From Schmidtea polychroa (lineage: Eukaryota), in contig CM097885.1 of NCBI GenBank assembly GCA_044892525.1, positions 744,001-808,000 on the forward strand: DNA of 64,000 nucleotides, written 5' to 3'. The position numbers and the translations under genes are program-made. Numbering within the stretch: position 1 is the stretch's first letter; every line of letters starts with the position of its first letter. The notes beneath the pieces were generated by a model, which was not told where the DNA came from, did no database searches, and saw only the letters and a list, made by a program, of their open reading frames with translations. Of this stretch, positions 6,458 through 49,100 are shown piece by piece.

Positions 6458-6513
6458 TTACATAATATATTTAATTAATCCTATTTTGTGTGTGTAAATT
6501 TTAATATATAAAA

Positions 6514-7806: not shown

Positions 7807-7835
7807 TATAATCCCTGATATTTTAACATTTTAAA

Positions 7836-10006: not shown

Positions 10007-10022
10007 TTTTATTTATTATAAA

Positions 10023-10601: not shown

Positions 10602-10623
10602 TACCATTTTTGATACCATTAAA

Positions 10624-11517: not shown

Positions 11518-11539
11518 ATACGAAGTTTTAAAATACAAA

Positions 11540-12004: not shown

Positions 12005-12073
12005 GGATTTTTACTATAAGGATTTTTACTATAAAGATTTTTACTATAAGGATTTTTACTATATGAATTTACT
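11998..12073. repeat. 15-bp tandem repeat (ATAAGGATTTTTACT) x~5
   Basis: Directly visible between the protease and penton genes. Confidence 0.9.
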
Positions 12074-12121
12074 ACTAAAGAAATGGAGCTTCACAACCCT
12101 CCGGAAGATAATTTAAAAAAA

Positions 12122-12847: not shown

Positions 12848-12871
12848 AGATTCATTTTAAATTATTAATAA

Positions 12872-13882: not shown

Positions 13883-13890
13883 TTATTAAA

Positions 13891-14502: not shown

Positions 14503-15298
14503 AATGGGTGTATTTTTAAAAAAGTAGATCAGGTTGCTATAGTTGCTTAAATTAATTGTCGACATTTTATTATTAAAAAATTAAATATCGTTGGTTTCAG
14601 TTATGGTTGAAAGTCAACCTATGAATCATTAATTTATGATCTTTAAATTCTTTATCACTTAGACCTTTTATATATTTAAGTTCTAAACATATAGGATTAA
14701 AAACTTGAGAATATAAAGGTTTCCCGATTTCTCTCTCGGGATAAATAATTTCAACATTATAAATATCAAGATCAGTAATCTTTGTATCATATAACTTATT
14801 CAACTTTTCTAGATTTTTTATTATAGGGACGAAGAAATAATGAAATCAAATCAAATAATACAAGATATAAAGAATGAGGTTATAAGATTAAAAAGGGAGG
14901 ACATGGTGGCTAATGTTATAAGTAATAAAAAAACATCTCGAGAAAAATGGTTAAAGAATTCTTACTTATAAAATGGGTGTATTTTTAAAAAAGTAGATCA
15001 GGTTGCTATAGTTGCTTAAATTAATTGTCGACATTTTATTATTAAAAAATTAAATATCGTTGGTTTCAGTTATGGTTGAAAGTCAACCTATGAATCATTA
15101 ATTTATGATCTTTAAATTCTTTATCACTTAGACCTTTTATATATTTAAGTTCTAAACATATAGGATTAAAAACTTGAGAATATAAAGGTTTCCCGATTTC
15201 TCTCTCGGGATAAATAATTTCAACATTATAAATATCAAGATCAGTAATCTTTGTATCATATAACTTATTCAACTTTTCTAGATTTTTTATTATAGGGA
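14359..15298. repeat. 469-bp tandem duplication spanning the convergent gene ends
   Basis: 14359-14829 repeated at 14828-15298 with a GA microhomology; explains the spurious ORF 14597..14803. Confidence 0.93.
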
Positions 15299-18200
15299 TT
15301 AAATTATTTCCAATAGGTAGAGTTGTCTTTAAATCACTTAGTATGAATCTTTTATCATCATAATTTGATAATGATACTTTTTGAGATTCTATCAAGTGAA
15401 TATCATGGTTTTCACTTTTAAGTTGATGTATTTCATCAATTTTATCTTTATGATTTGGATTCAATGTATCTATATAATCTTGATGAGAAAGATTCTTTGC
15501 CACCACTCTCTGTATTCCTTTACATCTGTTATCCTTTACAGGTTTTTCTTCTTTAGGAAATATAGGATATCTATGTGTAATGGTTTCTTCTGTTTCTGGA
15601 GTTTTAAATATAAATGATCTAGTTATAAATTCAGGGTTTCTAAATGTTTCGTATGAATATTGTTTAGCACGAATAAATATTCCATTTTCTATAGGAGTAA
15701 AAGGTTTTTCATCTTTAAACGAAAATAGTTCTCCAGATGAATTTATTAAATTTGAAAGTATAGGATTTTCTTTCATATCTTTTTGTAAATCATGAGTTCT
15801 TATTGTTAAAAACATTGAATCTGTATCCATTGCATGCATTGATATATTTGCTCCGTATATAGGTTGTAAGATGTTATAATATGTTTCATACATTTGTAAT
15901 TTTGAAAGTTCTAAAATTGTAAACCCTATAAATATTGGTTTGTTATATGTTTTCTCATAATTTTTTAATTCTACTGCAGTAAGATTTTCAGAAAATACTT
16001 GTGCGTTTTTAAATGTAGGCTTTCCTTGCATGCGATTATAACGCTTAATATCTTTGGTAGTATTTGTTAGGAGTTCAATATGAGTATATTTATCAACATT
16101 CTCCATTGTTTTCCCAAAGACTGAATTGTTTAAAATTTTATAATTATTATCTTTAAAAAGGTTACCTTCTCTTTTTGCAATGTTTCGACACCTAATGTTC
16201 TCCTCGATAAAAGCTTTCATGAATGGAGCTTGTTTAAATCTTATGACACTATGAACTTTTTTTAATATCATTCCTCGTGAGAGATAAAATTGGAGGAGTC
16301 TATAGTGACAAAGATAAAACCTTCGATCTGTTTGATCACAAAGAAGTTTCATTGTTGGAGGTTTATCTTGTGAGATTTGCCATTCAGAAAGTTCGTTGAT
16401 ATCAATCTTTCTTCTTATGGGAGCTAAAGGAAAATATCTTGTTCCTGATTTTATATCATCTGGATAGTCGAGGTCACATTCTATAAAGTAACCTATTGGA
16501 GAATCTTTCGATGTTGAAAGTATTTCTTTCATAAGGTTATCTGTTGGGTTCTCTATTTCAGTGAAATCACTCATTGGTAAATATTGAGTCATAATTCCTG
16601 AATATAAAGCTGTTGCATCTATATAAAGTATAAATATAGGATTTTTCATTGTTTCTAATAATTCTTTTAATTCCTCATTGTTAATTTTCATATATGGATC
16701 ATCAGGGTGTTTAGATAGTCTTCGGCTAGTAGTTATTGCATTTCTAGCTTTTATTTCTCTATTCCCCATTACTGAAGAGACTCCTCCTCTAATGTTTGTT
16801 TTAATTTGGTTAAACATATCGAGGTTAGTTAAAAGATCTATAATTTTATCAGCATCTTCTATATTTGAAGTCCAAATGGTATATAACATAGTATCCCAAG
16901 CTAAAGAGGGTGCAGTTATATAATTATAGGGTTTAAGAACAAAAGATTTTGTAAATTCTTCAAAGCAATCTGCTAGAATATAAACATCCAAGGATAAATA
17001 CATACTTGTATATTCTCCTAAAGTTTTACACTTGAATAATTCCCACATTTTATTTGCTCGAGAATATTCTTGATTTGTAATATGATTTTTTTGAAGTTGT
17101 GAATAGAAATCTTCTAGGCTAGGAAGACTTGTTTCATTATATCTTTCAAACGAGTCAACATAGTCATAAGGATATATTCCTTTTGCTAAACATGTAGGAT
17201 ATTCTTCTAGAGGAATATTATTTTTTTCCAAGAATTCTCCAGTGATTTTAAAATTTTCTGCTTTCATTGTTTTTGCTACTGCATCTAAAGACATTTGGAG
17301 AAAGTTTAACGAGTCTATAAATTTTAATTTTCCATATTCAATTGATTTATATTTTTCCTTTGTTAAGCCGATAACTTTGAAAGAGTTTTTAGCATTTGCT
17401 GCGAGGTGTTTAATAAATAGATGTATGTCATATCCAAAAAGATTATGAAATATAACAGGTATAAATTTAGGAGTATGGCAATTAAGATTGCAATTTTTAT
17501 GAGCTGCTCCTTGATAATTATTTTCCTTTTTTAAATGATCATGATCTATAACTTTTTCATCAGGAAGAATATTCTGTTTACACATCCAACAGTTGGAAGT
17601 ATTTTCATATTCTTGTTGTTGTTGATTAGAAATATTTTGAGGATACTTTGTTTTTAATATTTTAAATATTTCATGTTCTAGATCATTTATATTTTTAGTA
17701 AAATGATTCAAGACTTCTTCAGGGGTACCTCCTAGAATTGAATATTCTCTAGATTCTATGAGTTCAGGATAATTACTTTTAAATAATAATTTATAAGCAG
17801 ATGATAATTGATTAGTTTTTTTAACACTATTAGGTTTATTTCTTTTTCTTAGAAAGGCTTTCATCCTCTCTGGTTTCATCTTCTCTCCTGAGGAGTTCCA
17901 TGAATCCATGAGTTTATTTTTTTCTATTATTTTTAAATATTGATAAACCAAATCTTGTTTATGGTTTATAGATTCAAAGTCACCATAAAGAACTCCAACT
18001 GTTTGTAGTAAATTTGAAAAGTTTTTAAAATACATCTTGGGATTATTAGGCATTTTAATTAAAGCTGGATCATCTTTTTCACAAAATCTTGTATGTTTAA
18101 TCATAGAGTTTTTAGTTGTTGAATAATGAAGACATCTTTTACATGTTCCTCCTCCACTAGTTGGATTCTCTGGAGATGTAAAAGCTTGAAAGTTTTTTAT

Positions 18201-19346
18201 TAAAACATAATGTTGATTATTTTCTTGTTCCAAGATTAAAAGATATATCTCGTTGTCCTGTGCTCCGTTATCCTTGGTTCCACTATCTGAAATATAAATT
18301 GGAATAATTTCTTTCCCTATAACATGTTCATAAATATTAAGTTTAAGATTATTTAAACTTTCAAATTCTGGAATGTCTTCTAGTTTCATTGAGTGTTTGA
18401 ATCCTTTGGGAAATATTAATTCATTTTCATATTGTTTGTATTTTGAAACTCTTTGGGGATTTGTTGCTTGAGGATGTAAATGTGCAAGTATTGACCAGAT
18501 GAAACATTTGTTATCATTATTCTGTACATTTATAACATTTTTATATTTAAAGGGTGTAGGAATATAAGATTTAGGATTGGGTGGTAATCCTCTCCAATAA
18601 TCAATCACTAAAGTTTGGAAAGAGTTGAATACTAAGTTTGAATCTCCTAATTCATTTTCTACTTCCTCTTGTTTTGCTTCTGCTGCTTTAATTATTTCTT
18701 TGATGGTTTTATCAAATCCTTTAATTGAAAATAAATATTTAAAAGGTATTCCAATTTCAACATCTAAGGGTGTTGTCTTTTCTTCTGCTCCTCGCCAGTA
18801 TTTTGCTTTGATTATAATTTTATATTTTATAACATTATACCTTGTCGGTTTATAATTTTTTAAAGCTTCAGTGAAAGAATTTTTAATATTTTTTTTATTT
18901 TTATTTATATATTCTCCAGGAGTTGCAGGCCCATTAATTTTTAATTGAAATTCATCTATATGATTAAAATTATCCCAGTTATATTTTTCTCTTTCAACAT
19001 GATCAGGTTCTCCTTCTGAATGACATTCCTCATCGTCAGAATTTTGTTTTTTATTTTTACATTCTTTTATATGTTCTAAATAATAGAAATTTAGTTTTGT
19101 TGAAAAGTTACAATGAGGACATGTAAATATTTCTCTATTTTTCCCGATACAATTTTCAAAATGTTTATTATATCCAGAATGTAGAAATCTTCCTTGACAT
19201 TTAGGACAAAGTTTTGAATTTGTATCATTAAGATTATTTTCTTTTAATAAATGAGCTTTCGATTTTAAGTGAGAAATTAATCCAGTTTTATTTTTAAAAA
19301 CTTCATTTTTAGAAAAAAATTTTTTATTGGATACCCTGTTTTCATT
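15066..19346 (-). CDS. Protein-primed family B DNA polymerase with N-terminal zinc fingers and an endonuclease VII-like region
   Basis: YGDFE, FHNLFGYD, KGIYPYDY, YIDATALY, KILNNSVFGKT, MDTDS, KGI; my translation shows the frame stays open from 19346 (CPKC, CPHC fingers) with no in-frame ATG upstream of 18608. Confidence 0.93.
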   Translation of the reverse strand, partial: NENRVSNKKFFSKNEVFKNKTGLISHLKSKAHLLKENNLNDTNSKLCPKCQGRFLHSGYNKHFENCIGKNREIFTCPHCNFSTKLNFYYLEHIKECKNKKQNSDDEECHSEGEPDHVEREKYNWDNFNHIDEFQLKINGPATPGEYINKNKKNIKNSFTEALKNYKPTRYNVIKYKIIIKAKYWRGAEEKTTPLDVEIGIPFKYLFSIKGFDKTIKEIIKAAEAKQEEVENELGDSNLVFNSFQTLVIDYWRGLPPNPKSYIPTPFKYKNVINVQNNDNKCFIWSILAHLHPQATNPQRVSKYKQYENELIFPKGFKHSMKLEDIPEFESLNNLKLNIYEHVIGKEIIPIYISDSGTKDNGAQDNEIYLLILEQENNQHYVLIKNFQAFTSPENPTSGGGTCKRCLHYSTTKNSMIKHTRFCEKDDPALIKMPNNPKMYFKNFSNLLQTVGVLYGDFESINHKQDLVYQYLKIIEKNKLMDSWNSSGEKMKPERMKAFLRKRNKPNSVKKTNQLSSAYKLLFKSNYPELIESREYSILGGTPEEVLNHFTKNINDLEHEIFKILKTKYPQNISNQQQQEYENTSNCWMCKQNILPDEKVIDHDHLKKENNYQGAAHKNCNLNCHTPKFIPVIFHNLFGYDIHLFIKHLAANAKNSFKVIGLTKEKYKSIEYGKLKFIDSLNFLQMSLDAVAKTMKAENFKITGEFLEKNNIPLEEYPTCLAKGIYPYDYVDSFERYNETSLPSLEDFYSQLQKNHITNQEYSRANKMWELFKCKTLGEYTSMYLSLDVYILADCFEEFTKSFVLKPYNYITAPSLAWDTMLYTIWTSNIEDADKIIDLLTNLDMFNQIKTNIRGGVSSVMGNREIKARNAITTSRRLSKHPDDPYMKINNEELKELLETMKNPIFILYIDATALYSGIMTQYLPMSDFTEIENPTDNLMKEILSTSKDSPIGYFIECDLDYPDDIKSGTRYFPLAPIRRKIDINELSEWQISQDKPPTMKLLCDQTDRRFYLCHYRLLQFYLSRGMILKKVHSVIRFKQAPFMKAFIEENIRCRNIAKREGNLFKDNNYKILNNSVFGKTMENVDKYTHIELLTNTTKDIKRYNRMQGKPTFKNAQVFSENLTAVELKNYEKTYNKPIFIGFTILELSKLQMYETYYNILQPIYGANISMHAMDTDSMFLTIRTHDLQKDMKENPILSNLINSSGELFSFKDEKPFTPIENGIFIRAKQYSYETFRNPEFITRSFIFKTPETEETITHRYPIFPKEEKPVKDNRCKGIQRVVAKNLSHQDYIDTLNPNHKDKIDEIHQLKSENHDIHLIESQKVSLSNYDDKRFILSDLKTTLPIGNNLIPIIKNLEKLNKLYDTKITDLDIYNVEIIYPEREIGKPLYSQVFNPICLELKYIKGLSDKEFKDHKLMIHRLTFNHN

Positions 19347-19412
19347 TTATTTTTTAAGATTTATATTATTCATTTTTTATAATAAAAATTTAAAAAATGA
19401 CAAAAAATCCAA

Positions 19413-19484
19413 ACCTTGATGGCGCAGTGGGAATAAACTGACACAGTGGTTCAAAATGCTAGCGGTTCAAATCACATCTGAGGT
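19413..19484 (+). ncRNA. tRNA-like Pol III unit, diverged tandem copy just inside the right TIR
   Basis: TGGCGCAGTGG A-box, GGTTCAAATC B-box, T9 terminator; part of a ~215-bp tandem duplication with the 19627 unit. Confidence 0.6.
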
Positions 19485-19626
19485 TAGTTTTTTTTTCAAC
19501 ATAAAATAATATTGAAAATTGTGTGGGTATCTTATATTTATAAAGTACTTGTATATTTTATTTTATTTATTTTATTTTATTTTATTTTTTTATAAATTAA
19601 AAATTAAAAAAATGACAAAAATTCAA

Positions 19627-19698
19627 ACCTTGATGGCGCAGTGGGAATAGACTGGCACAGTGGTTCAAATGGATAGTGGTTCAAATCACATCTGAGGT
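19627..19698 (+). ncRNA. tRNA-like Pol III unit (right TIR copy)
   Basis: Identical to 5655-5726; A-box, B-box, oligo-T. Confidence 0.6.
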
Positions 19699-19876
19699 TA
19701 GTTTTTTTTCAACATAAAATAATATTAAAAATTTGAAAATAATATTGAAAATAGTGTGGGTATCTTATATTTATAAAGTACTTGTATATTTTATTTTATT
19801 TATTTTATTTTATTTTATTTTTTTATTAATTAATGATTTTTTAAACATAAATATGAAAAAAAAAATATTGAAACGG

Positions 19877-20246
19877 GTGATGGTGGCGAACCGGTAATTA
19901 TCGCCACCTGTCTTTCGAACACCCCCGGAACGATTCCGGTAATGTGCACATTTATTTCTCAGTTGTTTTCGGACCTCTTTCGGATTCGCTTTCGAATTCA
20001 TTTGTACTTTCGAGCAGCACACTTAAAACGCCGATGAAATCGTATTCGAGCGAGAAGCGAATAATAAGGTGTGCTGCTATTATCGAATTGATTCTGATGT
20101 ATGAGTCTGGCCAGCTTGTATATTGGAAGAGATTTGATAAACGAAAGAGGTTGAATAAAAAAAAAATGATCCGGATCAAAAAAAAACTGTTGAGAGGACA
20201 GTGAAAAAAAAAAAAAAAAAAACCACTGTCCTCTCAGAGCAGTTTT
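19877..20246 (+). ncRNA. Putative Pol III tRNA-Asp-headed structured RNA (right TIR copy)
   Basis: A-box 19884-19894; B-box variant GGAACGATTCC 19927-19937; stems 19973-19982/20142-20151, 20013-20022/20069-20078, 20043-20048/20058-20063, 20191-20203/20224-20236. Confidence 0.45.
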
Positions 20247-20625
20247 ACTATTTCATAAAATTTTTTATTTTTAAAACTTTCAAAACCTTAAGGTGATCAG
20301 GCGACCTAGATCATTATGAATTAGGTAATCTGATATTCTTATAATATTAAATCCTTATAACATTAAATCCTTAAGACCAAGTAGTGAGGAATCTATGCAC
20401 CCCGTTACCTTTTCTCGGAATTACTAATCTATAAATACATCTATTCCGAACTTTTTTACTTTTAAGGGAAGAAATTAAGGGTTAATGGCAATAGGGGACA
20501 AAGTTTAAAAGTTAAAAAAAGTGAAGAATATGGGGTAAAAAAGCATATAAATGTGGAAAATATGGGTCAATAGCGCTGTTTTTTTTTAGGGTGGGGGTGC
20601 TGGGGTGCATAGATTCCTCACTACT

Positions 20626-22582: not shown

Positions 22583-25500
22583 CAGTGGCGTATCTAGGGT
22601 TCACGGCGCCCGGGGCAAAACTTAAAATTGCGCCCCTCTCCACGTGAATTTTTTCTTTTCCTTATTATTGGTATATTATTTTTGCACTAAAGTGATATTT
22701 CTTTTTTAAGAAAAAAAAATTATTATTTAAAAAAATCAAAAATTTTCACTCTTTAAAATTGATTTGCAGCAGTTTTAAAAAAAATTAATTTAATTTTGCA
22801 ACAAGTTAGTTTTAAACTTTATTTATTGTAATAATTTACAAACAAATTTTTCGTGCTTTAACACTTACGAACTTGTCAATGACATCATCAAAGTTAATTT
22901 TGTTCACAGTGTTTTTCTCAATACTTAATAATGCCAAATTATTTAAACGTTCTTCACTCATTGTTGCTCGAAGATATGACAAAATTAATTTTAATTTGCT
23001 AAAGGAACGCTCGCATGTTGAAACAGAAATACCAATTGTCAAAAGAATTTGCAATGAAATTCTTAAATTTTGGAAAACATCTTCACCATAAGATATTAAA
23101 AATTTTAAAAGATCTATAGGTGATTTTGGAATTTCATCTTTTCGAGCATTAAGAAGCATTTTACAGTCAGTAACTTCATTGCATAGTTCGTTTTCATCAA
23201 TATCTGAATTGTAAAATTTTCCCAAATTTAAACATTTTTCTTTTAATTTAGCAGGATCATGGCAATTTAGAAAATTTTCAGTGTCAATGAAATATCCAAA
23301 ATTTTCGTTCAATGAATTAAGGCGAGTAAATCGAGTTTTTAATTCTTGAATTAATCTATCAACTGAGCATTTCAACACACGATCTAACTCTTGTTCAGCA
23401 GTCAAACCAGAATCAGTCATTTTTTCACCTAATCTAATTTATATACGTCGCACTCTTTTCTTTATTTCAGCGCCCCATTCAAAACACTTTTTTTTACCGG
23501 CTTCAATTGATTGAATGCATAGATCTTCAAGAAATTGCTGCATATGTATGCTTAGTCTTTGTAATTCATCGGAGGCATCTTTAAAATTAATTTTTGGATC
23601 TTGCATTCGTTTTTGTACACGATCAATTTTCTCGAGAACGTGATGCCAAAAATTGTTCAAAACCAGAAAATTAAAATTCAATATATTTTGCAATAAATTG
23701 TATGATTCGCTTCTTGTGTCAGATGTTTGATTGAAATCATCAGAAAGATCTTCAATTAATTTCACAAGATTATCGATTCCAATAAAAATTGCTTTTACAG
23801 CTTCTGCTCGTGCACTCCATCGTGTTGTTGATTCACGTTTTACAGTCAAAGGAATGACATCGGTTAATTTTTGCCAACGATTGGTTGATCTTGAAAAAAA
23901 TAAATAAATTTGTTCAATTACACCAAAAAAAGTTAGCATTATGGGATTAGTTTGAACAGAATGTAATCCTGCAAGATTTAAACTATGATTATCGCAGTTA
24001 ATAAACACTGCGCGAGGGTTCAATTTGGTAATTCTTTGTTGCAATCCAGAAACATGACCAGCCATAACTGCCGCATTATCATAACATTGCGATCGACAGT
24101 CCGAGAGTTGTAATCCATCAGTTTGTAATAATTTGAGTATAGTATTTTTAAGAGCTTCGGCATCTTTTTCAGCTAGCTCAATAAATCCCAGAAATGATTC
24201 CTTAATTTCCACTGTTTTGTTATCAAAATCTATTTCAACGTGACGAATAACTTCTGAAAATTGTTCACGATGTTGTAAATCTGGAGTAGAATCAAATATC
24301 ATGCCAAAGTATTTGCTTTTTTTAATATTTTCAATCAAAACATTTCGAACTATTGAAGCTAAAAGGTGAATAAACTCATTTTGTATGCCTGGTGATAAAT
24401 AAGATGTTGTTCCTGGATGTAAACGAGAATGTTCCATGTGACTTGCCAAAAGTGGATCATATTGCGCAATCAATTGTAAGAGACCCAGAAAATTACCTGG
24501 ATTGCCTTATGTATTCAACAAATTTTCATTATAACCACGTAATGCTAAATTATGAAATGCTAAGAATTTTATGCATGAAAGAAATCTTTTTAAAATTTCT
24601 CTCCATCGATCTTTTTCCAACAATATTTGAGCTTGAACTTCCATATCGATTCCAGCACCTTGAGACAATCTTCGTTCAGTTTCTTTCCATGTTGTAAAAT
24701 TCTGACGGTGTATAATATTATTTTCATGATCATTTACTCTTTCTGAATGCTTAAAATCTCTAAAACCAGCCGGTGAAGAAAATGCAGTTTTACAAAAATC
24801 ATTATAAAATAACAAACAACAAAAGCAGAAAAGTGTTTCTTTATGAGGCGAATAAATTAACCAAGATCGATTAACATATATACCGTTTGCCAACTTCTTC
24901 TTAAACCATGATGATGTAATTGAACGTCCATTATGCACTGCAAAGCTTCCTTTATTATTTTGAAATAAACTCGGGCCACGTAAAATGACTTCAGTTCTTA
25001 GTTTTTGTGAAACTATTGGACTGAATGAATGAAAACTTTCTTGAAATTCCAAATAACCAAAATCATTGAACGAAAGCAGATTCGGAATATTTTCTGAAAT
25101 TGTTGAAAGACATGATCTATTGTTGGATTCAGTCATTTCATAATCAAAATCCGACTCTTCATTGTTTTGTGAGGCATCAAAATCAAAAAATTCATAATCT
25201 GACTGCGGCATATGTTTGTCTTCTTTAATATCCTCTATCTGGTCATTTTCTTCAACTTTTTCTTTTTTTAAATAATTTTGCAACATTTGACTTGACATTT
25301 TAGCTTCATTTCGGAATATTCTGGCCTTTTTACGATTTTGTGCGCCACTTAATTTCGGTTTCGGCATCTTTGATATTCTAAAGTTTGAAAGTTTTTTCAA
25401 ATAATTTTGAGCTTAACAAATAATTCTATAAATCTTACGATTGAGTTCTGGATATAACTCAAATTTCATGTATTTTGGAAAGGCTTTGAAATATATAAAC

Positions 25501-26029: not shown

Positions 26030-26890
26030 TAAATCTAATTATAATTATAATCAAAATTTTCTTTAATTTAACCCTTTATTTACTTAATTTAGTCCTTGTT
26101 TACCGAATATAGAAGTTTAAAATATAGACCATTGATTACTTTAATTTATAAATGTATCCCTCAATTTAAATAATTTCCATCTAAAATTATTTCAAAAAAA
26201 TTTTTTTTCTAAAATTGTCATTGAAAAATATTTCATAAAAATTTTCATTAAAAATTATCTTAAAAATTATTCCATAAAATTTCCATCTAAAATTACTTAA
26301 AAAATATTTTCATACAAATTTTCATTAAAAAATTTCAATTCTCAAACACCTTCTATTATTTTGTTAATAAATTTAAAATCTTACTTTAATTTGCTTATTA
26401 CATTACTTATTTAAAAATTATTACTTTAATTTACTTATTTAAAATATTTGACCATTGATTACTTAATTTTAAAATTTGACCCTTAATTAACTTTAATTCA
26501 AAATTTGGACCTTAATTTACTTTAATTGAAAATTTTAGACCTTAATTTACGTAATTGAAATTTTAGACCTTAATTTACTTAAGTTTAAAAATATATACCA
26601 TAATTTACTTTACTTTTAAATTTTAGACCATAATTTACTTAATTGAAAATTTTAGACCTAATTTAATTTAATTGAAAATTTTAGACCATAATTTACTTAA
26701 TTGAAAATTTTAGACCTTAATTTACTTATTTGAAATTTTAGACCTTAATTTACTTAATTGAAAATTTTAAACCTTAATTTACTTAAGTTTAAAAATATAT
26801 ACCATAATTTACTGTAATTGAAAAATTTGGACCATAATTTACTGTAATTTAATTTTTTAGAACCATAATTTACTGTAATTGAAAAATTCG
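26030..26890 (+). repeat. AT-rich modular satellite (~28-bp units, AATTGAAAATTTTAGACCTTAATTTACTT-like)
   Basis: Tandem units visible; direct copy at 35866-36500 and inverted copies at 28880-29700 and 36735-37388. Confidence 0.8.
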
Positions 26891-28402: not shown

Positions 28403-28879
28403 AGTAGGTAGTTAGTAGCCTACGGCAGCAATAGGGGGGGGGTGGGGTAAAAATGGTGCAAACTTTTGATTGCATAATTTTTGCCGTAGACATTTTTTGA
28501 TTACATAATTGTTGCCGCATGCTCCAATGATTTTTTTCTGGGATTTTAAATACAAAATTTTTTTTAATAAACAAGCCAAGGATAAGTATTATTTGGGTGG
28601 GTTTCCTTGGTCCTGGGATTTTCAATACAAAATCTGATTATCACTAAAAAAGCCATGGTTATTTAAGGTCTCAGGATATTTTCAATAGACAAAGGTAGTC
28701 TCCAATAAAAAAGCATGGATTTTTCACACTATAGTGAGGGGGGGTCTCCATAGTCCTAGGATTTTCAATACAAAAAGACGGTTTACACTAAAAAAGTATG
28801 GTAATTCAAGGTCTTAGGTTATTTTCAATACAAAAAGGTGGTCTACACTAAAAAACATGGTAAATTTTTTAATATAAAG

Positions 28880-30170
28880 CAAATTATGGGTCTAAAAATA
28901 GGATTACAGTAAATTATGGACTAAGATTTTTAAATTAAAGTAAATTATGGTCCAAATTTTTGAATTACATTAAATAATGGGTCTAAAAATTGAATTACAG
29001 TAATCAATGGTCAATAATTTTAATTTAAAGTTAAATAAGTAAATTAAAGGTTAAATTATGAAATTAAAGTAAATCAAGGTCCAAAATTTTAAACTAAAGT
29101 AAATGATGGGTCTAATAATTGAAATAAAGTAATCAATGGGCTGAAATAAGTAAATGAAGGTTCAAATTAGTAAATTAAGATCCAAAAAAAAAAAAAAAAT
29201 TAAAGTAATCAATGGGTTCAAATGAGTTAATTAAGGTTCTAAAAAAAAATTAAATTAAAGTAATCAATGGGTTCAAATAAGTTAATTAAGGTTCTAAAAA
29301 AAAATTAAATTAAATTAATCAACGGGTTCAAATAAGTTAATTAAGGTCTAAAATTTAAAATTAAAGCAATCAATGAGCTCAAATAACTAAATTAAGGTTC
29401 TAAAAAATAAAATTAAAGTTAATTAAGTAAATTTAAGTAATGTAATAAGTAAAAAAAGTTAAAGTTAGATTTTAAAATTTATTTAAGTTGGAATAATAGT
29501 TGGTGATTGAGAATTGAAAATTTTAAATGAAAATTTTTAACGTATATTTTTTTAAGATAATTTTTAATAGACATTTTTTATGAAATATTTTTCAATGTTA
29601 ATTTCAGATGAAAATTTATATGAAATATTTTTCAATGTTAATTTTAGATGGAAAGTTTTATGTATTATTTTTCAATAGTAATTAAAGATGCAAATCATTG
29701 TCAATTAATCATTCACTACATGAAATTATTGGTTAAATATGAAAATAAGGGCTATATTTGGTTGTAAATTATGGTAAAAAAATTTAAATAAAGTAATACA
29801 AGGATAAATAGGTAAATTAATGTTTTATTTTTAAATTATAGGTTCAAAACTTTAAATTAAAATTTATAAACAAAAGTTGGAATAACCAACCGCTTCTGAG
29901 AAATAAAAATTTAAAATAAAATTTTTAAGAAATAATTTTTTAAAGTCAAATTTTAATAGAAACTTTTATGGAATAATTTTTTTAAATTAATTTTTATTGA
30001 AAATATTTATGAAATATATTTTAAGTTAAATTTGAATAGAAATTTTTATGGAATAATTTTTGAAGCTAATTTTAAATAGAAATTTTAATGAATTAATAAT
30101 TGTCAAAGACAAATTTAAATGGAAATTTTAATGAAATAATTTTCAAAGGCAAATTTAGATGCAAATTTCA
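28880..30170 (-). repeat. Inverted, diverged copy of the AT-rich modular satellite
   Basis: AGTAAATTA(T/A)GGTC units, the reverse complement of those at 26030-26890. Confidence 0.7.
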
Positions 30171-35865: not shown

Positions 35866-37388
35866 TAATTATAATCATAATTTTCTTTAATTTAACCCTT
35901 TATTTACTTAATTTAGCCCTTGTTTACCGAATATAGAAGTTTAAAATATAGACCATTGATTACTTTAATTTAAAAATGTATCCCTTAATTTACATAATTT
36001 CCATCTAAAATTATTTCAAAAAAATTTTTTTTCTAAAATTGTCATTGAAAAATATTTCATAAAAGTTTTCATTTAAAATTTTCATTGAAAAATATTTCAT
36101 AAAAATTTTTTTTAAAAATTATCTTAAAGATTATTCCATAAAAATTTCCATCTAAAATTACTTAAAAAATTATTTCATAAAAATTTTCATTAAAAAATTT
36201 CAATTCTCAAACACCTTCTATTATTTTGTTAATAAATTTAAAATCTTACTTTAATTTGCTTATTACATTACTTATTTAAAAATTATTACTTTAATTTACT
36301 TATTTAAAATATTTGACCATTGATTACTTAATTTAAAAATTTGGACCTTAATTAACTTTATTTTAATTTTTTAGAACCTTAATTTACTTTAATTTTAAAT
36401 TTTGACCCTTAATTAACTTTAATTCAAAATTTGGACCTTAATTTACTTTAATTGAAAATTTTAGACCATAATTTTCATGTAAAATTGTCATTGAAAAAAA
36501 TTTCATTTCTCAGGCGCCGTTTAGTAGGTGGTTAGGTGCCCGCTTCAAATGCATGCCTTTTTTTTTGCTGCAACATTTGATTGCGCAATTGTTGCAACTT
36601 GTTTTTTTTTCTATTGAAAATTCTAGAAAAAAAAATAATCGTAGCTTACTGTACAGCAAAAAAAATGAGTTGCAACAATTGCGTAATCAAAATTTGCAGC
36701 AAAAAAAAAGTTGCCGCAGACCCCTCCCCCCCTAAAATTTTCAATTAAGGTCTAAAATTTTCAATTAAGTAATTAAGGTCCAAATTTTTTTAATTACAGT
36801 AAATTATGGTTCTAAAAAATTAAATTACAGTAAACTATGGTCCAAATTTTACAATTACAGTAAATTATTGTATATATTTTTAAACTTCAGTAAATGAAGG
36901 TCTAAAATTTCAATTAAGTAAATTAAGGTCTAAAATTTTCAATTAAGTAAATTAAGGTCTAAAATTTTCAATTAAATTAAATTAGGTCTAAAATTTTCAA
37001 TTAAGTAAATTATGGTCTAAAATTTAAAAGTAAAGTAAATTATGGTATATATTTTTAAACTTAAGTAAATTAAAGTCTAAATTTCAATTAAGTAAAGTAA
37101 GGTAAAAAATTTTCAATTAAGGTCTTAAATTTTCAATTAAAGTAAATTAAGGTCCAAATTTTGAATTAAAGTTAATTAAGGGTCAAAATTTAAAATTAAA
37201 GTAAATAAAGGTTCTAAAAAATTAAATTAAAGTTAATTAAGGTCCAAATTTTTAAATTAAGTAATCAATGGTCAAATATTTTAAATAAGTAAATTAAAGT
37301 AATAATTTTTAAATAAGTAATGTAATAAGCAAATTAAAGTAAGATTTTAAATTTATTAACAAAATAATAGAAGGTGTTTGAGAATTGA
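35866..37388. repeat. Foldback-like arrangement: satellite arm, GC-richer core (36510-36733), inverted satellite arm
   Basis: 36201-36468 is the near-perfect reverse complement of 37121-37388. Confidence 0.75.
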
Positions 37389-38065: not shown

Positions 38066-39199
38066 TTTTATGTGTTTAGTTAATGTTTATATGTTTTGTT
38101 ATGTGTCTAGTTATTTTTATGTGTTTAGTTAATTTTTATGTGTTGTATAGTATTTGGTTGAAATAATAATATTATTATTAATCTATAAAAAAAAATTTCA
38201 TTAAAAAAATTTACTTAAAAAATTAATCCACTAAAATTTTCGTTGAAAATTATCCCAAAAAATTTTTATTAAAGATTTTCATTAAAAAATTTCAATTCTT
38301 AATTACTGACTATTATTCCAACTTTTTGTTAATAAATTTAAAAATCTTACTTTAATTTACTTATTACTTTAATTAAAAAATTTGAAACTTAATTTACTTA
38401 TTTCAGCCCACTGATTACCAAATATATCTATTAATTTACTTTAATTCAAAAATCTTAGCCCATAATTTACTATATTTCAATTTTTAGACCCTTAATTTAC
38501 TGTAATTCAATTTTTGAACCATCATTTACTTTAATTTTAAATTTAAGAACCATAATTTACTTTAGTTTAAAAATTTGAACCTTAATTAACTAATAAAAGT
38601 TAAATTATCATTTTCAATTAATATTTTACAAACATAAAATTACAATATTTGAAATTCTAAATATCTCTATTAACATGTTTGCAAAAATTATTTTTCAAGA
38701 CGTCTAAAAGCTCTAGGACAAGAAGAAAATATAGTTTAGAAAGGTAGTGAGTGAATTTCCTAATGAATTACAGAAGGGTATAGGACAAAGTTCCAGTTCT
38801 CTATTCTCAATTTATCATCAATCAGCAGCGACATTGACAAAGTTTTTCTTAAACAAGCTGCAAATTTATATATAAAATTACATAAAAATTGTTGATAAAT
38901 TGTTAAAGTTTTAATAATATATTTCGAATAATAAAAATTTCCCTTGATAAAATTCTGAATATGAAATAAATATTAAAAATTATATTAAAATTTAAAACTG
39001 TAAAAATTTTAAATTTTATTTATAAATTTCATTTTTAAATTGTTTTATTAATCAATTTATTAGAAAATAATCTTAATGAAGCATTTTAAGTATTATTTTA
39101 GTTTTAACTAATTTTTCTAAATTTTATTTAAATTTATTTTTGTAGTCGTTTATGATATGGAGGCCTTTAAGCAGTTAGTCTTAGTTAACGTAGCTCTCT

Positions 39200-40140: not shown

Positions 40141-41529
40141 TGCTACTTGTTTGAATCCTTTCTGTGCATTCGGACCCCAACGGCAACTACTTACTCTTGC
40201 CGCTAGTATCTTTTTAAGTGTCCCAGTTAAAACTGAGCACGGTCTTCCTCTATTTTTGAAGGCTTTCTTAAATCGTCATCCAAGCTAGTTCGCTGGTCAT
40301 GTTTTCGGTTATTGGGAGTCATTTCCTAATATTTTTGATTTCAAGCTTTGGCTGGGTGCTTTGTTTTGCCTGTGTTTTAATAGAATGGGAATAGGTACCT
40401 TTTAGGCGAAGTTCGGAAGTTTTTTGTAATTATTGGCGTGTTTACGAGGAGCAAATGTGGATTTTCTAAGGGATCTTTCTTTAAATTTTAAAATTAGAAA
40501 AAAGTCTTTGATGATATATAGGTTAGTAGGAATGTTTTTTATAATTTTATGGATATCTATAAAAAAACTTTTACTTAAGTTGTAGAGTTGACAATGGTTA
40601 GTAGGTTTGTAAAGTTTGGTATTATTAGGAAAAGGAGAAGGTATGGGTTCGCTAGAAGGGTTAGCGCTTTGACATTTTCTGGGAGTCGGCCGAAGGCCGA
40701 TGAGCTGTGATTGGATATTTCGGTTTCAGGGCTTACATTTGCTGTTTAATGTTGGTTTAAGTAAAAAGGAGTATTATTATCCATAGTGTCCGACGAAGCT
40801 TTAAGGACTGGAGTGATAGGAGTTGTAGCTGGACTCCTTCTCCTGGTAGTATTCCTTACTATATCTGCGTATGTTTTTGATGTAGCTTCTTTTGCATTCA
40901 TTTTGTTTTCGTCTAAGTACCTAATGATATAGATAAATATTGGAACTGGGGCATAATTTATTCATAATCCGAAGGCTTCAATGGTTATACGTCAGCTGCC
41001 TCCTGGCTTCTCTGATAAAATTCTCTTTTTCTCCTTGGAATTGCCGCCCATTTCTGCGCAGTGCTAGGAATCTTATATTGGAGTGATTCTCCGAAGCACT
41101 GGTAAACGGCGGGAGTTATAATGTACGATTGTTTTTGGAATCTTGCATGTAATATTTTTACGGAAAAGAGGTGCTAGGAAGTGATTCTCCTAAGCGCTGG
41201 GAAACGGCGGGAGTAATCTGGTAATAAATTGAGTTTCTGAATAACATTAAAGAAATATTTTCACGGTAAAAAAGGGGACCTCCATCCGGCATTTGATCAT
41301 CCTCCTGCAGCAGAATTATCTTTTTCATTTTCCTTAACTTTTAATTTTTCTATTTCTTTAACCTTTTTATAGAAAACTTTATTATCCTTTTCTATATTTG
41401 AAAATTTTACATTATTAAAAGCGAAAATATCATTAATACCGCAATTTTGATTATTAATTACCGTTATTTTAGCTTTCGGATAATTTTGAAATAATAAATA
41501 TGGCATTTTCATGCTTTTCCTTGTCATCG

Positions 41530-42500
41530 GGCGAGATTTTTTTCCAATCGGCCAGTGTTATTCCATCAAGTCCTGGAGCAGTGTTTTGGAGTTGTGAGAA
41601 GATTTATTATTTAGGATCTTCGTTATCTCCTCTTTAGGTTTTGTTTTATATTTGGATCTTTTTATACAAAGCAGTTCATTTTTAGTCCAGGTTTGTTTAT
41701 GGACAATGTCTGCTGATTTTTTAATTTTCTTTTTTTTCCATTTCATTAAGGGCTGTTTCACGGTCCATATTGTCGTTATTTAAATTAGTTATTAAACCTT
41801 TAATAAGTGGGAGGTATTTTTTAATATTATCGTCAGGTATTTTTTAGGTAAAATAGTTCTCCTCAACAGTTCTGATATTTTTTTGCATAATAGTAATTTT
41901 AGGAATGGTTAGTTTAGTATTCTTTATCAGGCATTGGATGAGGTGGCACACCAAAAAGGCAACTGGGATATTCATATTTTGTGAGTGTAATTGCGAGTGG
42001 TGAAACGATATTTTGCAGATCAAGAATGGTATTCAGTATGCTATTAGCGAGAGATAAGTGTATGGAGTGGCTATCGTCAAGTAAAGAATCTATTATAACA
42101 GCTAATTGTCTCCGCTTATCAAGATAAAAGAAAAACCAGTTGTCTTTGCCATTTGACATTGGCATAATAATTTCGTTCCACTCTGCGAAGTCTTTGAAGG
42201 GGAAGGAGGAGAAGAAGATTTTGTAATTATGCTGGATTAGAAAGTTATCAACATAAGGGTCAACAAAGATGGTCGATTTTTTCATGGCGAAAGAGTAAAC
42301 GAATGCCTTTATTGTGTCCTGGGACCATCAAGCTGATTCCTTATCCACGTTATTATAAGCAATCATTTGGTATTTCTCTACTATAGTTAACATCAAAACC
42401 ATTTAGACATTCTTCATCTGATGAAATTTGTTTCGCTTGCTTTGTGTTTCAAGGTTATCTGCAATCACCTCCTGTGTGTTTAATACATTATTCATAATAT
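41530..42500 (-). pseudogene. NeSL/R5-like retrotransposon fragment, subfamily B (Ulp1-like domain to RT start)
   Basis: WNEIIMPMSNGKDNWFFFYLD...AVIID; homologous to 46105..47148; frameshifted. Confidence 0.7.
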
Positions 42501-45348
42501 ATATATTGCCTAACCCTACGGCGAGGCATCCTAAATAACTACCAGATAAAGGGACTTTTATTCCCTACTACAAGAGACTTTTATTCCCTACAACAAGGGA
42601 CTTTTATTCCCTACTACAAGGGACTTTTATTCCCTACTACAAGGGACTTGGGATGTAGACCAGTCGTCCACCGTAAACACTACGTTAACCACTGGAACAA
42701 TCATGTGAGTCATATCAAATGTCTTAAGTGAATAAGGAAGTTTGGAATTAGAGTCGACACCACGCACTATATAGTCGCGAAGTCCAGCTAAGTGTTTTTA
42801 GGGATAAAATCATCACATCATGCTTGCCGAGATTGATTCTCAACAAGCTCTCAAAGGAGGGCATAGCCATAAGACCTCGCCAGTTTAGAGTGACTGCTCC
42901 AAAACCCACCTCATATGCTCCTTTATTTTTAATCCATTGTTTGACTTCATCCACTTGATACTTACCTGCATTCTCAGTATTTCTAGTATAAAGATTCTCG
43001 TTGTCGTTGATGATCTGGACGTCCAGAACCATCGCTTGGTTGTCTTTAAGAAGAATAAGATCCGGTTTGCGGTAGCTCTCCTTGTAGGGAGTAATCGGTT
43101 CTATTAATGCCTCCCACCCTTTGCTCCGTGCCGCAGACACTATATAATTAACTAACTTATTGTGCCTTTTTACTCTCAGACCATGCAAGCCTGGGCACTT
43201 CTGAGCAACCGACTTTACATATAAGAGGTCCTTTTGCATGCATTCTACTGATCCTAGTGGGTGTATACATTAAACTACCTCTCACTTTTACTGCATTGAT
43301 GAAAGTTCGACCAGTCATCAATTTCCCTCGTGCAGTTAACAATTTGTGTGCACACTGCACTTCTTTGGCTTCATAAAGCCCTTTACCGTCTAACTTACTA
43401 TAAAGAGTCATAGCAGTGGCTTCGTAGTATTGTTTCTTGGTGGCTATTGGCGTCTCTTGTAGGAACAACGATTTATTCCATTTTGCAAATTGTGACCTGA
43501 CCGCTTCGTTCTCGGCCAATAAGCTTATCTTCTCATCCCTGCACTCTTCAATACGTCTAAGCCTATCACGCTTCGCAAATGGTACCTCTGTCAACAGGGC
43601 TGGCACACCCAGCCCCCCATTTTTAATTTTACTATTTATAAATGATGAACAAGTATCGGTTGGCAGGTGTAACCATTTGCGAACCGCGCCTCTAGTCATT
43701 TTATCCAATACCCCTAATTCGGTGGTATCGGTTTCCCCCAGCACAGCCTCATGTAAGATACCTGGTATCAAAAAGTCACTAAGCACCTCTAACTTTTGTT
43801 GCGGCTTAATAGGTGCCCTCGTAATATACTCAAGACGCTTAGTATAAAGATTGGATAGCTTTTTAGTAGTGCGACCAAGGGCTCCAAATTGGATCCCAAA
43901 TTACTTATAGTAGTCGTCAGCTGACATGGCAGGGAACTCTTCCCCATCAGCACTTACCTTTTTGCTAGTAACCATCCATTTTTTCTGCTTACCGTCCCCT
44001 CGCGCTATAATGGAGGCACCTTAAAAGCAATTCGGGATAACCCGCTTATTTCGCCGCTCTCATGATACTATCATGATTCACAGAATCGAAGGCCTTTTTC
44101 ATATCGACAAAGGCAATTGCTACATTCCTAAATTTAGTTCGCGCATCAGAAAGGATGCAATCCAGCAAAGTGGTGTTTTCAAGGCACCCATCCACTGGCT
44201 AGCTTGAAGAGCGCAGCATGCGGTATAGTTCTCAAGGCCTTCGCGCTAATGCCGTCAGGACCACTAGCCGTTTTCAATTTCATCTTTTTCACAGCAGCTG
44301 CGATCTCCTCCAATGAGATGTGTGCAGCTACTGACTTATCCTCAGTTGTCCTCTGGACAGGCCGGGTATCGGGTTCAGACTCTTTTTCGAAAACCTGTTT
44401 CCAATAGTCCCCTCTACCCGGCATTGGATCATCCTCCAACAGCAGACTATCCAGCTTACCTTCAAGGATAGTGCTAGCGGCCGCACTTCGATCCTTCTGG
44501 AATAATCTCTGCAAATCCCCATAAATAGCTCTCTTCTTAGCTACCTTTATGTGCTTTTTAACCTTTGTACCATCCACGGGGACCTGGTACGTTTGGTTAA
44601 ACTTGTTTTTCCTCTTTTTGAGTTTTACTTGAAACTGCTTAGTTACTGATAAGCAATATTCATCAAGCAAAACTCGTTGAGAATTTTCATCTTCAGTAAG
44701 GATGATCCTATCCAGTTGGTCCTCATGCCAAATGCTATGACCCTTGCTTCGAGGGAATTTCCTTAAAATAGTCATGATGTCTGGAGATGGACTCGGGGCT
44801 TGTGGGTTCTCCATCGCCTGCTCCATGCCCATCCCCTTCATCTTGTCTTCTAACTCTTTAAACACTGCTTTATATTTATTACTATCTAAGTGTTTGCGAA
44901 TGGATTCCTTTGAACGTTTGAAGGCTGAACATCCAAGGTGAAGTATATCAAGAAGGTGAGATTGAGGTCTATAACGATTTTCAAGGTGAGTTTGAGCCAT
45001 GAGGAGCTCTTCTTCATTACTCCAGTAATAAGCAGGTTTATTGGAAAGTTTCCTCAAGATGGCCTCATCACGTTAGGTGCGATGGGATTTAGATATTTTA
45101 CTTGAAACTGCTTAGTTACTGATAAGCAATATTCATCAAGCAAAACTCGTTGAGAATTTTCATCTTCAGTAAGGATGATCCTATCCAGTTGGTCCTCATG
45201 CCAAATGCTATGACCCTTGCTTCGAGGGAATTTCCTTAAAATAGTCATGATGTCTGGAGATGGACTCGGGGCTTGTGGGTTCTCCATCGCCTGCTCCATG
45301 CCCATCCCCTTCATCTTGTCTTCTAACTCTTTAAACACTGCTTTATAT
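42501..45348 (-). mobile_element. R2 non-LTR retrotransposon, internally deleted copy 1 (Myb, partial RT, RLE, 3' UTR)
   Basis: WSNEEELLMA (Myb), ASGPDGI, DGCLEN...DMKKAFDSVNH, GGLGVP, RHNKLV...KPDLILL...LDVQI..KY; 3' UTR 23-bp repeats at 42549-42648. Confidence 0.88.
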
Positions 45349-46112
45349 TAAAAAAAAAAAAAAAAAAATCAAATTTTATTTTAATCAAAACGCGGGCCCC
45401 AAGGCCAGGAAGGGGAGATCGATTTTCACCCTTAAGAATTCTGCATCTTTTAATCAAATAATCGAAGGATATCAGAACGTGTTCATTTCGGTTATCATGT
45501 CATCAGGAGTAAGGATTTTTGGAGAGGCAGTGATGATCGGATTATCATTGTTGTCGAGGTCGGTATTGGAATTGAAGTTGATGAATTAGCATGGATATTT
45601 GATCTAGATGCTCAGTCGTAAGGGGTTCGGATAGGTCTTGATAGTTTGAGTTGATGGAGTTTATGAGTTCCGATATGGAAGTTGGATGGTCTTCATTAAG
45701 TTGATCATTTTCTTGGTTATTTTGGTGGATAAGTCTGGGTATTTGATTCAGATCTTCAGTAGCAAGGCGTTCGGAGAGGTCTGGATTTTGGTTAGTAGGA
45801 TCATCAGGAGGCTTTTATAGCTAGTCTCTGAGTATTGGAGGTCAGCCATTTGCAGGGAGGGCATGATCTAAATAAATAAGTTTCGGGGCAGGAAGGATCC
45901 CATGCGAAGTTTATAGCGAGAAATAAGTACTTATTATAATATATATTATAAGGAGTTAGTGAAGGTTGAGGTAAGTATATTAGTATTAATAGTTAATAGA
46001 GGTGTTGATTATAGTATCAATAGTATAATAATAATGATTATAGTATTAATAAAAACAACTAAAAAGACCACCAAATAGGCAGAACCCCTACAAGGATTCC
46101 TACATTAACCCA

Positions 46113-49100
46113 TTCGGGAACGAAAGGATTTCCAGCATATTGGTGATCTGGAATTACGAAGGATGTTGTTACATAAGGCAAGGATGAGCTCAAAGTTAGG
46201 AGATATCTTTCTCCAATCGCTTAGGGAGATTTTATCGGTACCAGGGGCAGTATTGTCGAGTTGGCAGAAGATACTTTTAATGTCATCAATGTCAAAGGGA
46301 ATGATGGTTAATGATTCAGAGAGTGCTGGGTACTGATAGTTAAGGTTAAATGTGCAATCGGAGGTTTTGCTAGCAAAAAGTTTTAAAATATGATCCATAT
46401 TTGGTGTATGTGTTTTCATTTGATTATTTAAGATTTTTGAAATTTCCTCTTTAGGAGCAAATTTATATTTTTGTCTCTTGGTAAATACCAGCTCTTTACT
46501 AACCTTATAATTTTTGTGAATAATGTCCGATGCTTTCTTTGTGATGTATTTATGAGGATTAATGCTTCCATTAATTCTCTCAATCTCACTTAAGGCAGCA
46601 TCGCATTCAATTAGATTGTTATTTAGATTAATAATTAGACAATTGATAAATGGTCGGAATTTCCGCACATCATCATTTGGCAATTTGCAATAATTATAAT
46701 TATTTATAGTAGTTTTAATATCATTAATCATATTAGTTACATTAGGGCAAGTTAATTTTTTACGTTTAATAAGGCATTCGATAAAGTGGCATATATAGAA
46801 AGCAGAGTCTGTAGGTACGAAGCAACGAGGGTATGCAGGATTTTGAAGTACAATTTGGACAGGGCTTACAATTTTTTGGAGATCAAGAATGGTTTCGAGG
46901 ATATTCTGAGCTAATAAGAGGTGAGTAGAGAGGCTATCGTCAAGAAGCGTGTCAATGAGTACAGCAAGTTTACGATGTTTGTCAAGTAGAAAGAAGAACC
47001 AGTTGTCTTTACCATCAGACATGGGCATGATAATCTCATTCCAGTGAGCAAATTCAGAGAAAGGAAAGGTGGCAAAGAAGGTTACATAGTTATGCTGAAT
47101 AAGTGCATTTCCTATGAATGGGTCTACAAAAATAGAAGAGTTTTTCAAGGCATTTGAAAAGATATATGCCTTGATTGCATGTTGTGACCATCATGTCGAC
47201 TCCTTCTCAACATTATTACCGAAGATAAGGGTATCAGGAAGGGGACGTTTGACAATTTCGCTTTCAGAGAAGGTAGCCTCAAATTCTTGCGACTCAAGAA
47301 TTGGGCGCAAGTTGTTCACATTTTCAAGGGGGCTATCCTGTATCTGGGAGATCACAAGCGGAGTGGGGATATTGCCTGGATACACATAAGGTTCTGGGTG
47401 ATATTCGAGGATATGTTGTCGAATAAGGTGATGGGAGATCCATGATCCACAGAAGCAGTATATTTCCTCGTCAGGGTAAAAGATAAGTTTTTTATGTTTG
47501 ACCTTTATGTGGTTAATAATGGTCATAAGGGGGGTGTCGATGTCAAAGATGGTTTTACATTTATTGCGATTTTTACTATAGTTGAAGCATATGAGGTTAT
47601 TGGAGGGTGAAATCCGGATTTCAGCGCGGCTCATATATTCCAGGTCGCATTGGTCTATGTGTTGAAAGTGGGTGATGTGATTATAAATTTGTTTGAAAGT
47701 TATTGGATTTGGCGCAAATTTATTCTCACCAGGAGTTCTACATTGAATGCAATCGATAAGAGTATTTTCGTCAATTTTTAATCTATGAAAGTCCCACGCG
47801 TGCTTAAAGATTTTTTTGCGATTATGGACAGAAACAGGACTGCAAAGTGTTGTCCTGCATTTGGACCTGCATTCGATTTTGCCCCTACCATTAAGTTTGA
47901 GAAGTATTTTGTTATCAAGTTCACTCTCATCTGCTGTTTTTGGGACGAAGGTATTGTGTGTGTGTTTGGCCAATGTTATGGGTGTGAGGTATTTAGGAGG
48001 TGGGGCAGGGATATTATTCGCAATCACTTGTATTTTTTTATTAAATACTTCCATTTGTGATTGTATTCTTAATGCCTTTTGGATTTCGTTGCATTCAGAT
48101 TCAGAAGGAGTAGGTGCGGTGACTTTAGGTGTACTGCTAAGCTCATTAGCGTTGGTAGTTTTAGATTGGATAAATTCAGGCGTATTATGAAGACAGGCAG
48201 TTGTCATAGGGTTGTCAGTGTTGTTGTTGGAAGAGGAAGAGGCTGTGGGCTGGAGAGGTGGTTCTTGGTCGATAGAGGCTACACTGCTGCTCGATAGATT
48301 CACATCATCTATGTCCGAGTTAAAAAGATCATTATTTGGCTGGGGATTTACAAGAGATTGAGAAGGGTTTTGAGGAGTTTGAGAATTAGACTCATCTATT
48401 GGAAGGGGGTCAATGGTGTCATCAAGGTCACAGCTGTAGTGTGAAGTGTCAAGAATGTATTCAGAGCAAGAGAGGACGAGGGGTTAGGAGAGAGATCAGA
48501 GTCATTGTCAATAGTATCCTTTAATGGAGAGCGTTTAACATGGGGAAGGGCAATGAGGGAATCATCAGTATTGTTCTCATAATTATTAATTTTATTTTTA
48601 TTTTTATAAATAGAGTAGAGGGTTGTGTATTTACCCTTACGTATGATTTTTTTAACCAAACAAGATTTTATTACTTTACTATTGTTATCGTTAAAAATTG
48701 GAGGAAGGTTTTTAAGATCCTTGGGCTTATGGATGAAATCATTCGGGATAGGCTCAGAATAATGACGTTTCAAGGAAGTTCCAAGGTTTTTATTAGAAAG
48801 AGTTTGAGGTATAGTGTAAGTATTTCGATTGTCAGGTACATAATTAGCCATATTCACAGGAGAAAGAAAGGTATCAGTTGTTTGTGAGTTTGGAGTTTGA
48901 TTATAAACTAAGTTGTTTAAGGTAGGTTCAGAACTAACGAGCTTTTCGCTGAAGGTGACAGTCTTTGAAGAGGCGAGTCGGCCGCAGGCCGGCGAGCTGC
49001 GTGTTTTCTCATGTTCCGAAGGAACACGAGAAAAATTTTTTTGAGAAAGAGTGTGGTTAAATAAGTGATATTTAAACAAAGAAAAGTCTTTATTTAAAAT

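Follow-up and report, generated by a model that had tools for sequence, protein, structure and literature searches.

Does the in-frame UGA in the middle of a Schmidtea polychroa retrotransposon simply terminate translation, or is it a stop that ribosomes are meant to read through? The question is raised by element A, which lies on the minus strand of the 64,000-nucleotide stretch of DNA analysed here (the window), and by two further copies, B1 and B2, on the same strand. As the original prediction had it, in-frame TGA triplets stand at 47191..47193 in A (context ACA TGA TGG), at 42328..42330 in B1 and at 54681..54683 in B2 (GCT TGA TGG in both), each with the predicted peptides on its two sides. 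The stop is a real and old feature, as indicated by its constant frame and column, its conservation over deep divergence, and the selection on protein on both sides of it.

The window is AT-rich eukaryotic repeat DNA (29% GC) containing a Polinton-like element, pieces of hAT transposase, satellites, R2-like elements and a fragment of 28S rRNA. Elements A and B appear to be RLE-type, NeSL-clade-like non-LTR retrotransposons; their membership in R5/LIN is suggested by architecture rather than by comparison with R5 or LIN sequences. They resemble R5 (Girardia tigrina) and LIN of planarians in being RLE-type elements of a flatworm-like genome situated near pieces of 28S rDNA. R5 itself is said to have two ORFs. 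Neither of two LIN 3′ end motifs occurs in the window. With regard to the insertion target, A starts inside an R2-like element and lacks its 3′ end, and R5/LIN is described as a supported lineage with varied targets (PMC4640811, in excerpt).

The 5′ end of A (49995..50233) abuts the RT region of the R2-like element at 50234, where a self-alignment of 43506-44023 to 50234-50752 stops. The 5′ part of ORF1 (48399..49994), Asn/Ser-rich and of low complexity, is an open frame of 532 codons with its first ATG at 49676; the 3′ part (47194..48483) consists of 430 open codons that lead up to the TGA. The two parts are in different frames in the window copy, the change falling near 48471. Contigs of four runs from the host species were aligned on 46000-48600 at 80% likeness (465, 525, 33 and 1 placed), and one contig in each of the runs X1 and X5 has one extra base behind 48471; by arithmetic, this base would join ORF1 into a single frame of about 828 codons. 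The 3′ part gave no Pfam match at E 0.01, and pattern matching finds in it four zinc-finger-like Cys/His motifs (47785-47871, 47659-47751, 47494-47589 and 47398-47457), the last two of which are kept in B2.

Past the TGA, the same frame continues for 361 open codons, in agreement with what had been proposed. It encodes an Ulp1/SENP-like (CE clan) domain (46690..47190; family profile and alignment), followed by a linker and the start of the RT (46108..46689, by alignment to relatives), with an APG motif at 46228-46248. The linker can be aligned with the related sequences P0001, P0003 and L001 without interruption as far as the RT start. Element A ends near 46114, some 45 codons into the RT, where loose ends of host contigs aligned on A are also found (46114-46117); a full RT is absent from the window. 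Thus, of the earlier description of this region as a protease-RT ORF, the shared frame stands, but the protease of A has lost its catalytic His and Cys, and the window copies are truncated at the RT start.

Both B copies are decayed, with a further stop and frameshifts close by. B1 occupies about 41526-42505 and B2 about 53953-55174, with further zinc-finger pieces as far as 55915; an R2-like 3′ piece (55369-55724) interrupts ORF1 of B2. Because B1 and B2 are 97.9% identical, they are counted once, and the window holds two lineages, A and B, which are about 69% identical around the stop.

Comparison of A with B2 bears out the expected pattern of flanking conservation, with saturated synonymous sites and a conserved protein on either side of the stop. 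In the 53 codons between the stop and the first common Met, 13 codons are identical, 21 differ synonymously and 19 non-synonymously (codons +1 to +53: pS 0.96, pN 0.20), and fourfold sites are identical in 9 of 27 cases. Immediately after the stop (+1 to +7), codon positions 1 and 2 are identical at 13 of 14 sites (binomial p about 6e-5 against 0.4). Immediately before it (-8 to -1; 47194..47217 in A), they are identical at 15 of 16 (p about 1e-5 against 0.4, the -8 border having been picked by eye), while third positions agree in 2 of 8 codons. Further upstream, where B2 is decayed, first and second positions agree at 15 of 56. The eight conserved codons end in [DE]-x-E-S-[AT], and 4 of 5 residues at -5 to -1 are identical between B2 and L001. 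A has no early ATG, as had been noted: counted from the stop, the first in-frame ATG comes at codon 55 in A, at codon 15 in B and at codon 48 in L001. The stretch that precedes any common AUG is, by this codon comparison, under selection as protein. Given the deep divergence of A and B with ORF2 under selection, ORF2 must have been expressed with the stop present, unless the stop arose twice. It should be noted that TAA predominates among the stop triplets of the window (57-59%, versus 24-27% for TGA), whereas the junction stop is always TGA.

Among 40 of the 583 variant rows of the host contigs, none falls on 47191-47193, and one synonymous change is found at 47200. A loose end at 47195 in X7, translated by hand, reads N-I-D-N-E-S-A ahead of the stop position, a third version of the pre-stop motif; in X1 and X5, contigs with some 80% identity likewise break off there.

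An independent relative is L001, one of three loci recovered from metagenome contigs that were scanned with the RT motif only, and the only one of the three that spans the junction. This contig (1573 bp, 45% GC) reads D-V-E-S-A, TGA, L-S-G-N-A-I-E-A-Y-L in one frame, which runs past the TGA through a protease with intact His, Gln and Cys into the RT. Aligned to A by tblastn (25% identity, E 8e-23), it pairs residue +2 with residue +2, and the spacer at the stop is zero and the frame the same in A, B and L001. L001 holds one stop in 463 codons and a frameshift further on; the chance that a single decay stop would be a TGA on the Ulp1 Trp column is 0.006-0.018. On the upstream side, no more than 36 open codons fit between the contig end and its stop. 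As for the other two loci, L002 has the RT motif and no alignable upstream sequence, and L003 was rejected as an unrelated endonuclease-RT frame. A scan of genome contigs yielded one locus, L004, with the RT motif and no protease upstream, and a scan of viral contigs yielded no relatives.

Among protein sequences, 5 of 42 relatives carry the Ulp1 Pfam domain, and all five have their Met start 6-34 columns after the stop column. These late starts, seen in protein sequences alone, are consistent with a stop at that place. A, L001, P0001, P0003, P0004 and P0008 form one group in the tree (support 95/98, 263 columns, A on a long branch). CCHC and PD..D.K motifs, as expected of a C-terminal zinc knuckle and a restriction-like endonuclease, can be recognized by eye in P0003 and P0004; the window copies are truncated before that region. 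Other searches were less productive: ORF2 of A gave three weak matches in a library of representative proteins and nothing among longer proteins, the nine-row family alignment found nothing among proteins of 2548-5000 residues, and residues 1-420 of P0004 had no usable match in the protein atlas.

Where in the Ulp1-like domain does the stop fall? Its placement on the Ulp1 Trp in the original prediction is upheld by the register of NeSL-1 in a published alignment and by structural alignments that start one residue past the stop. In that alignment of NeSL, Utopia and cellular sequences, Trp occupies column 1 in 17 of 22 rows; of the 11 NeSL rows, 10 have Trp there and one has Tyr (PMC4640811 S5 Fig). 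A, read from its stop, reproduces the NeSL-1 residues Ala, Ile, Tyr and Ile at columns 6, 7, 10 and 11. Utopia-1_TSP has Cys and Trp at columns 1 and 2 (PMC4640811 S5 Fig), and A and B resemble it in having Trp at column 2. The alternative register, in which the TGG after the stop supplies the motif Trp, was rejected, since Lys would then fall on the conserved Ile column and L001 has Leu in place of this Trp.

A profile of nine family members that include A and B matches SENP2 (6e-11) and Ulp1 (2e-10); a three-sequence profile of the junction matched no solved structure. Pfam Peptidase_C48 is detected in L001, P0001, P0003, P0004, P0006 and P0007, and not in A alone. The L001 domain, modelled with the stop read as Trp (pLDDT 67, pTM 0.63), matches SENP3 (Z 13.3) and Ulp1 (Z 12.6, rmsd 3.4, 157 aligned residues). 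Fifteen of the best 20 structural alignments begin one residue past the stop; a few show a shift of two. The first residue past the stop is paired with Ulp1 449, SENP1 466 and SENP2 411; Ulp1 448, SENP1 465 and SENP2 410 are what we take to be the substrate-tunnel Trp. The model has one helix across the stop, but the part ahead of the stop is modelled with low confidence and for the most part not aligned, and the model is therefore no proof of a fold that spans the stop; a model of 463 residues (pLDDT 59.5) is uninformative at the junction.

The catalytic residues set the lineages apart. In A, Asn replaces the catalytic His (46993-47010) and Ser the catalytic Cys (46798-46815); B shares the Asn in place of His, and in P0001 the Cys is replaced by Ser. 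The A protease is, to judge from these replacements, catalytically dead, and for this reason the Trp is not needed in A. His, Cys and the oxyanion Gln are kept in L001, P0003, P0004, P0006 and P0007; where they are intact, as in L001, the Trp is expected to matter for an Ulp1 protease. The Ulp1-like domain also multiplies within the clade, with two Pfam stretches in P0006 and repeats visible by eye in P0007.

Since the UGA is fixed at the Trp column both in the host and in a very distant relative, ribosomes probably read through it at times. We propose that an ancestral single frame with zinc fingers, an Ulp1-like domain, RT and endonuclease would have been split by one leaky UGA placed where the Ulp1-like domain has its first conserved Trp. 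At this codon the majority of ribosomes would stop and release the zinc-finger ORF1 protein; the others would accept a near-cognate tRNA (for Trp, Cys or Arg) at the UGA and go on to complete the ORF1-protease-RT fusion. Programmed UGA readthrough would thus probably supply an abundant ORF1 and a rare fusion, keep RT scarce, as in gammaretroviral gag-pol, and restore the usual one-protein layout of the clade; in single-ORF Utopia and NeSL elements, zinc fingers, protease and RT are united in one protein (PMC4640811, in excerpt). It would also account for the whole pattern, namely the shared frame, the missing spacer, the invariable TGA, the selection on both sides and the restored domain order. 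Already favored by the original prediction, readthrough gains from the TGA of L001 in the same column; its occurrence, its rate, the residue inserted and the signal that promotes it are still what we infer.

The sequence context agrees with known readthrough sites in part. UGA-CUA, the context in L001, is the type II consensus, and UGA-UGG is found in sorghum chlorotic spot virus, a divergent furovirus (PMC3159437, in excerpt). In A and B, the base after UGA is U rather than C, and their UGA-UGG is thus a described variant and not the CUA/CGG consensus. An A just before the stop, common at readthrough sites (PMC3159437, in excerpt), is present in A and L001 and not in B. The [DE]-x-E-S-[AT] peptide (window 47194-47208, L001 1466-1480) is kept with changing third positions and has DxE in common with the 2A motif; several viral type II sites likewise carry acidic residues just upstream (PMC13517186, in excerpt). 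Beyond viral readthrough contexts, the excerpts of PMC8226300 and PMC13517186 have no bearing on the case. RNA folding, suggested earlier as a check for a stimulatory 3′ structure, did not bring one to light: no structure is common to A, B1/B2 and L001, a type II stem-loop being expected to be conserved and to lie 7-12 nt 3′ of the stop. Relative to shuffled sequences, folding z reaches about -3.5 in A (first 60 nt) and -3.9 in L001, each the best of four windows tried, with none in B1/B2, and the A/B consensus is weak, with few sequences. A hairpin 17 nt past the stop (47145..47174) is predicted in A only.

The alternative that keeps most of its force, although we consider it unlikely, is that the UGA is a true terminator and that ORF2 is made separately, by AUG-independent termination-reinitiation or an IRES-type start just past the stop. 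Published accounts of termination-reinitiation concern SART1 and LINE-1, and in caliciviruses the restart works even with altered start codons (PMC5972666, in excerpt). The stop also occupies the opening column of the published Ulp1 alignment, which would leave nearly the whole domain to ORF2 alone, and the structural matches mostly begin directly past it. A near-cognate in-frame Ile codon is present at +6 in A, B and L001, where P0001 has Met; a restart at +6 comes too late, however, because codons +1 to +5 are conserved as protein. Nor does a restart account for a constant TGA, frame and zero spacer at saturated divergence or for the conserved residues before the stop, and ORF2 alone would lack the zinc fingers. 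The AUG of UGAUG is out of frame, closes after 33 codons in A and 22 in B, and is absent in L001; on these grounds, coupling of the SART1 type was rejected. 2A StopGo (DxExNPG-P) was rejected as well, given that only DxE is in common and the stop comes two residues later.

Compared with readthrough, it is very improbable that A-to-I editing converts the stop to UGI, read as Trp, in part of the RNA. A single A-to-G change would restore the ancestral Trp codon, and the A is predicted to be paired in B and L001 (pair probability 0.8-0.95), but the copies are not paired alike, and the probability in A is low (0.28). L1 RT is known for its cis preference for its own RNA. An edited, RT-making RNA would be likeliest to be copied back, so that TGG would replace TGA within a few rounds.

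A short in-frame intron that removes the stop seems no more credible. GT at -18 or -12 and AG at +21 do form pairs in all three lineages (giving 42 nt for A and B and 36 nt for L001), and the 22 nt from the A of the TGA to the AG resemble the spacing of a branch point. Yet donors (GTTGAG, GTGGAT, GTGGAA) and acceptors (AAG, AAG, GAG) are poor, the 21 nt past the stop would never be translated although their codons are conserved and agree with the Ulp1 motif, and retrotransposition would be expected to fix the spliced form.

Equally remote, and largely refuted, is the idea of an inactivating stop mutation, either carried over into dead copies or produced by independent hits on a Trp codon. All window copies are truncated or decayed, L001 is frameshifted, and TGG to TGA takes a single transition; however, synonymous saturation between A and B under purifying selection on ORF2 needs an expressed ORF2, and independent hits on the same column in three lineages are improbable. 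The least plausible proposal is that UGA, the codon used in both cases, is read as selenocysteine (Utopia-1_TSP having Cys at the stop column) or as Trp throughout under a variant code: the stop column is not the catalytic Cys, Rfam matches in the window are limited to 28S rRNA and a tRNA, with the 3′ UTR of the copies missing, and a variant code is excluded because the other Trp codons are all TGG (9/9 in L001, 5/5 in ORF2 of A, and 10/10 in a 1426-codon polymerase frame that itself ends in TGA).

How does readthrough at this UGA compare with known systems? NeSL-1 (Caenorhabditis) and Utopia-1_TSP (Trichinella) share the Ulp1-like domain upstream of RT and the register of its first helix. They differ in having a single ORF, with a sense codon at the stop column, and an intact catalytic His and Cys, both of which are lost in A. 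Gammaretroviral gag-pol (MuLV) and the type II UGA sites of alpha-, tobra- and furoviruses have an in-frame stop between an abundant upstream product and the polymerase, and readthrough between structural product and polymerase is documented in gammaretroviruses (PMC5009743, in excerpt). Unlike these sites, the present one belongs to a non-LTR element, lies at the start of a protease-like domain and follows a conserved peptide, and no conserved 3′ pseudoknot or stem-loop was found at it. Stop readthrough also occurs in some LTR elements. SART1 with its UAAUG, LINE-1 with reinitiation and APE-type elements with 2A StopGo likewise keep RT scarcer than the upstream protein (PMC3894237, PMC5972666, both in excerpt); in contrast to these, the junction described here has no in-frame overlapping AUG, no spacer and no NPGP.

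Translation of the second ORF of non-LTR retrotransposons is regarded as an open question in a review (PMC3894237, in excerpt), and the excerpts of PMC3894237 and PMC5972666 list stop-start coupling, reinitiation, IRES and 2A as solutions, and not stop readthrough. Our search of accessible literature listings found no report of stop readthrough in non-LTR elements and no indication that a UGA at the Ulp1 Trp links the two R5 ORFs in one frame; such an in-frame stop may already be mentioned in the R5 paper or in Repbase. With a conserved in-frame UGA, the non-LTR repertoire would gain stop readthrough, the solution of the gammaretroviruses, and a concrete route from a one-ORF to a two-product element would become visible. 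The UGA also means that ORF-based annotation cuts the N-terminus off the proteins of these elements. More speculatively, and with considerable doubt, an old RLE non-LTR lineage in unrelated hosts may have made its ORF1 by way of a leaky UGA on the tunnel Trp of a SUMO-protease-like domain, with the [DE]-x-E-S-[AT] nascent peptide, rather than a 3′ RNA structure, mainly setting readthrough. An intact protease would then be complete only in the read-through product, and the dose of protease and RT would be tied to recoding.

The neighborhood of these elements deserves a brief description. The R2-like elements form a near-identical pair (50234-52169 and about 42500-45349) with zinc finger, myb-like stretch, RT and endonuclease; internal duplications occur in them, and a 23-bp tandem marks the 3′ end. 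A diverged 28S rRNA fragment (57378-58027), not at the ends of A or B, includes the sequence beside the published LIN9_SM target, with the junction here a few bases off. A third ORF1-like family is represented by pieces at 2079-3301, 57982-60047 and 40749-40961 without an attached ORF2, and has a short motif in common with ORF1 of A (match at 3152-3229). In-frame TAA stops interrupt a hAT-type transposase (DUF4371; 22836-25412), of which another, partial copy lies at 830-1453, and 29/58-bp satellite arrays occur in both orientations (26402-26885, 28862-29422, 36274-37320 and 38432-38591). Finally, a Polinton/Maverick-like element spans 4731-20625 between 1-kb terminal inverted repeats (4731-5746 and 19607-20625) that are 99% alike. 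It encodes a protein-primed polymerase (15066-19346), a double jelly-roll capsid protein (6505-7806) and an integrase joined to a phospholipase A2-like domain (7827-9218), and also contains a tRNA-like piece (6143-6215) and an exact 469-bp duplication (14359-15298).
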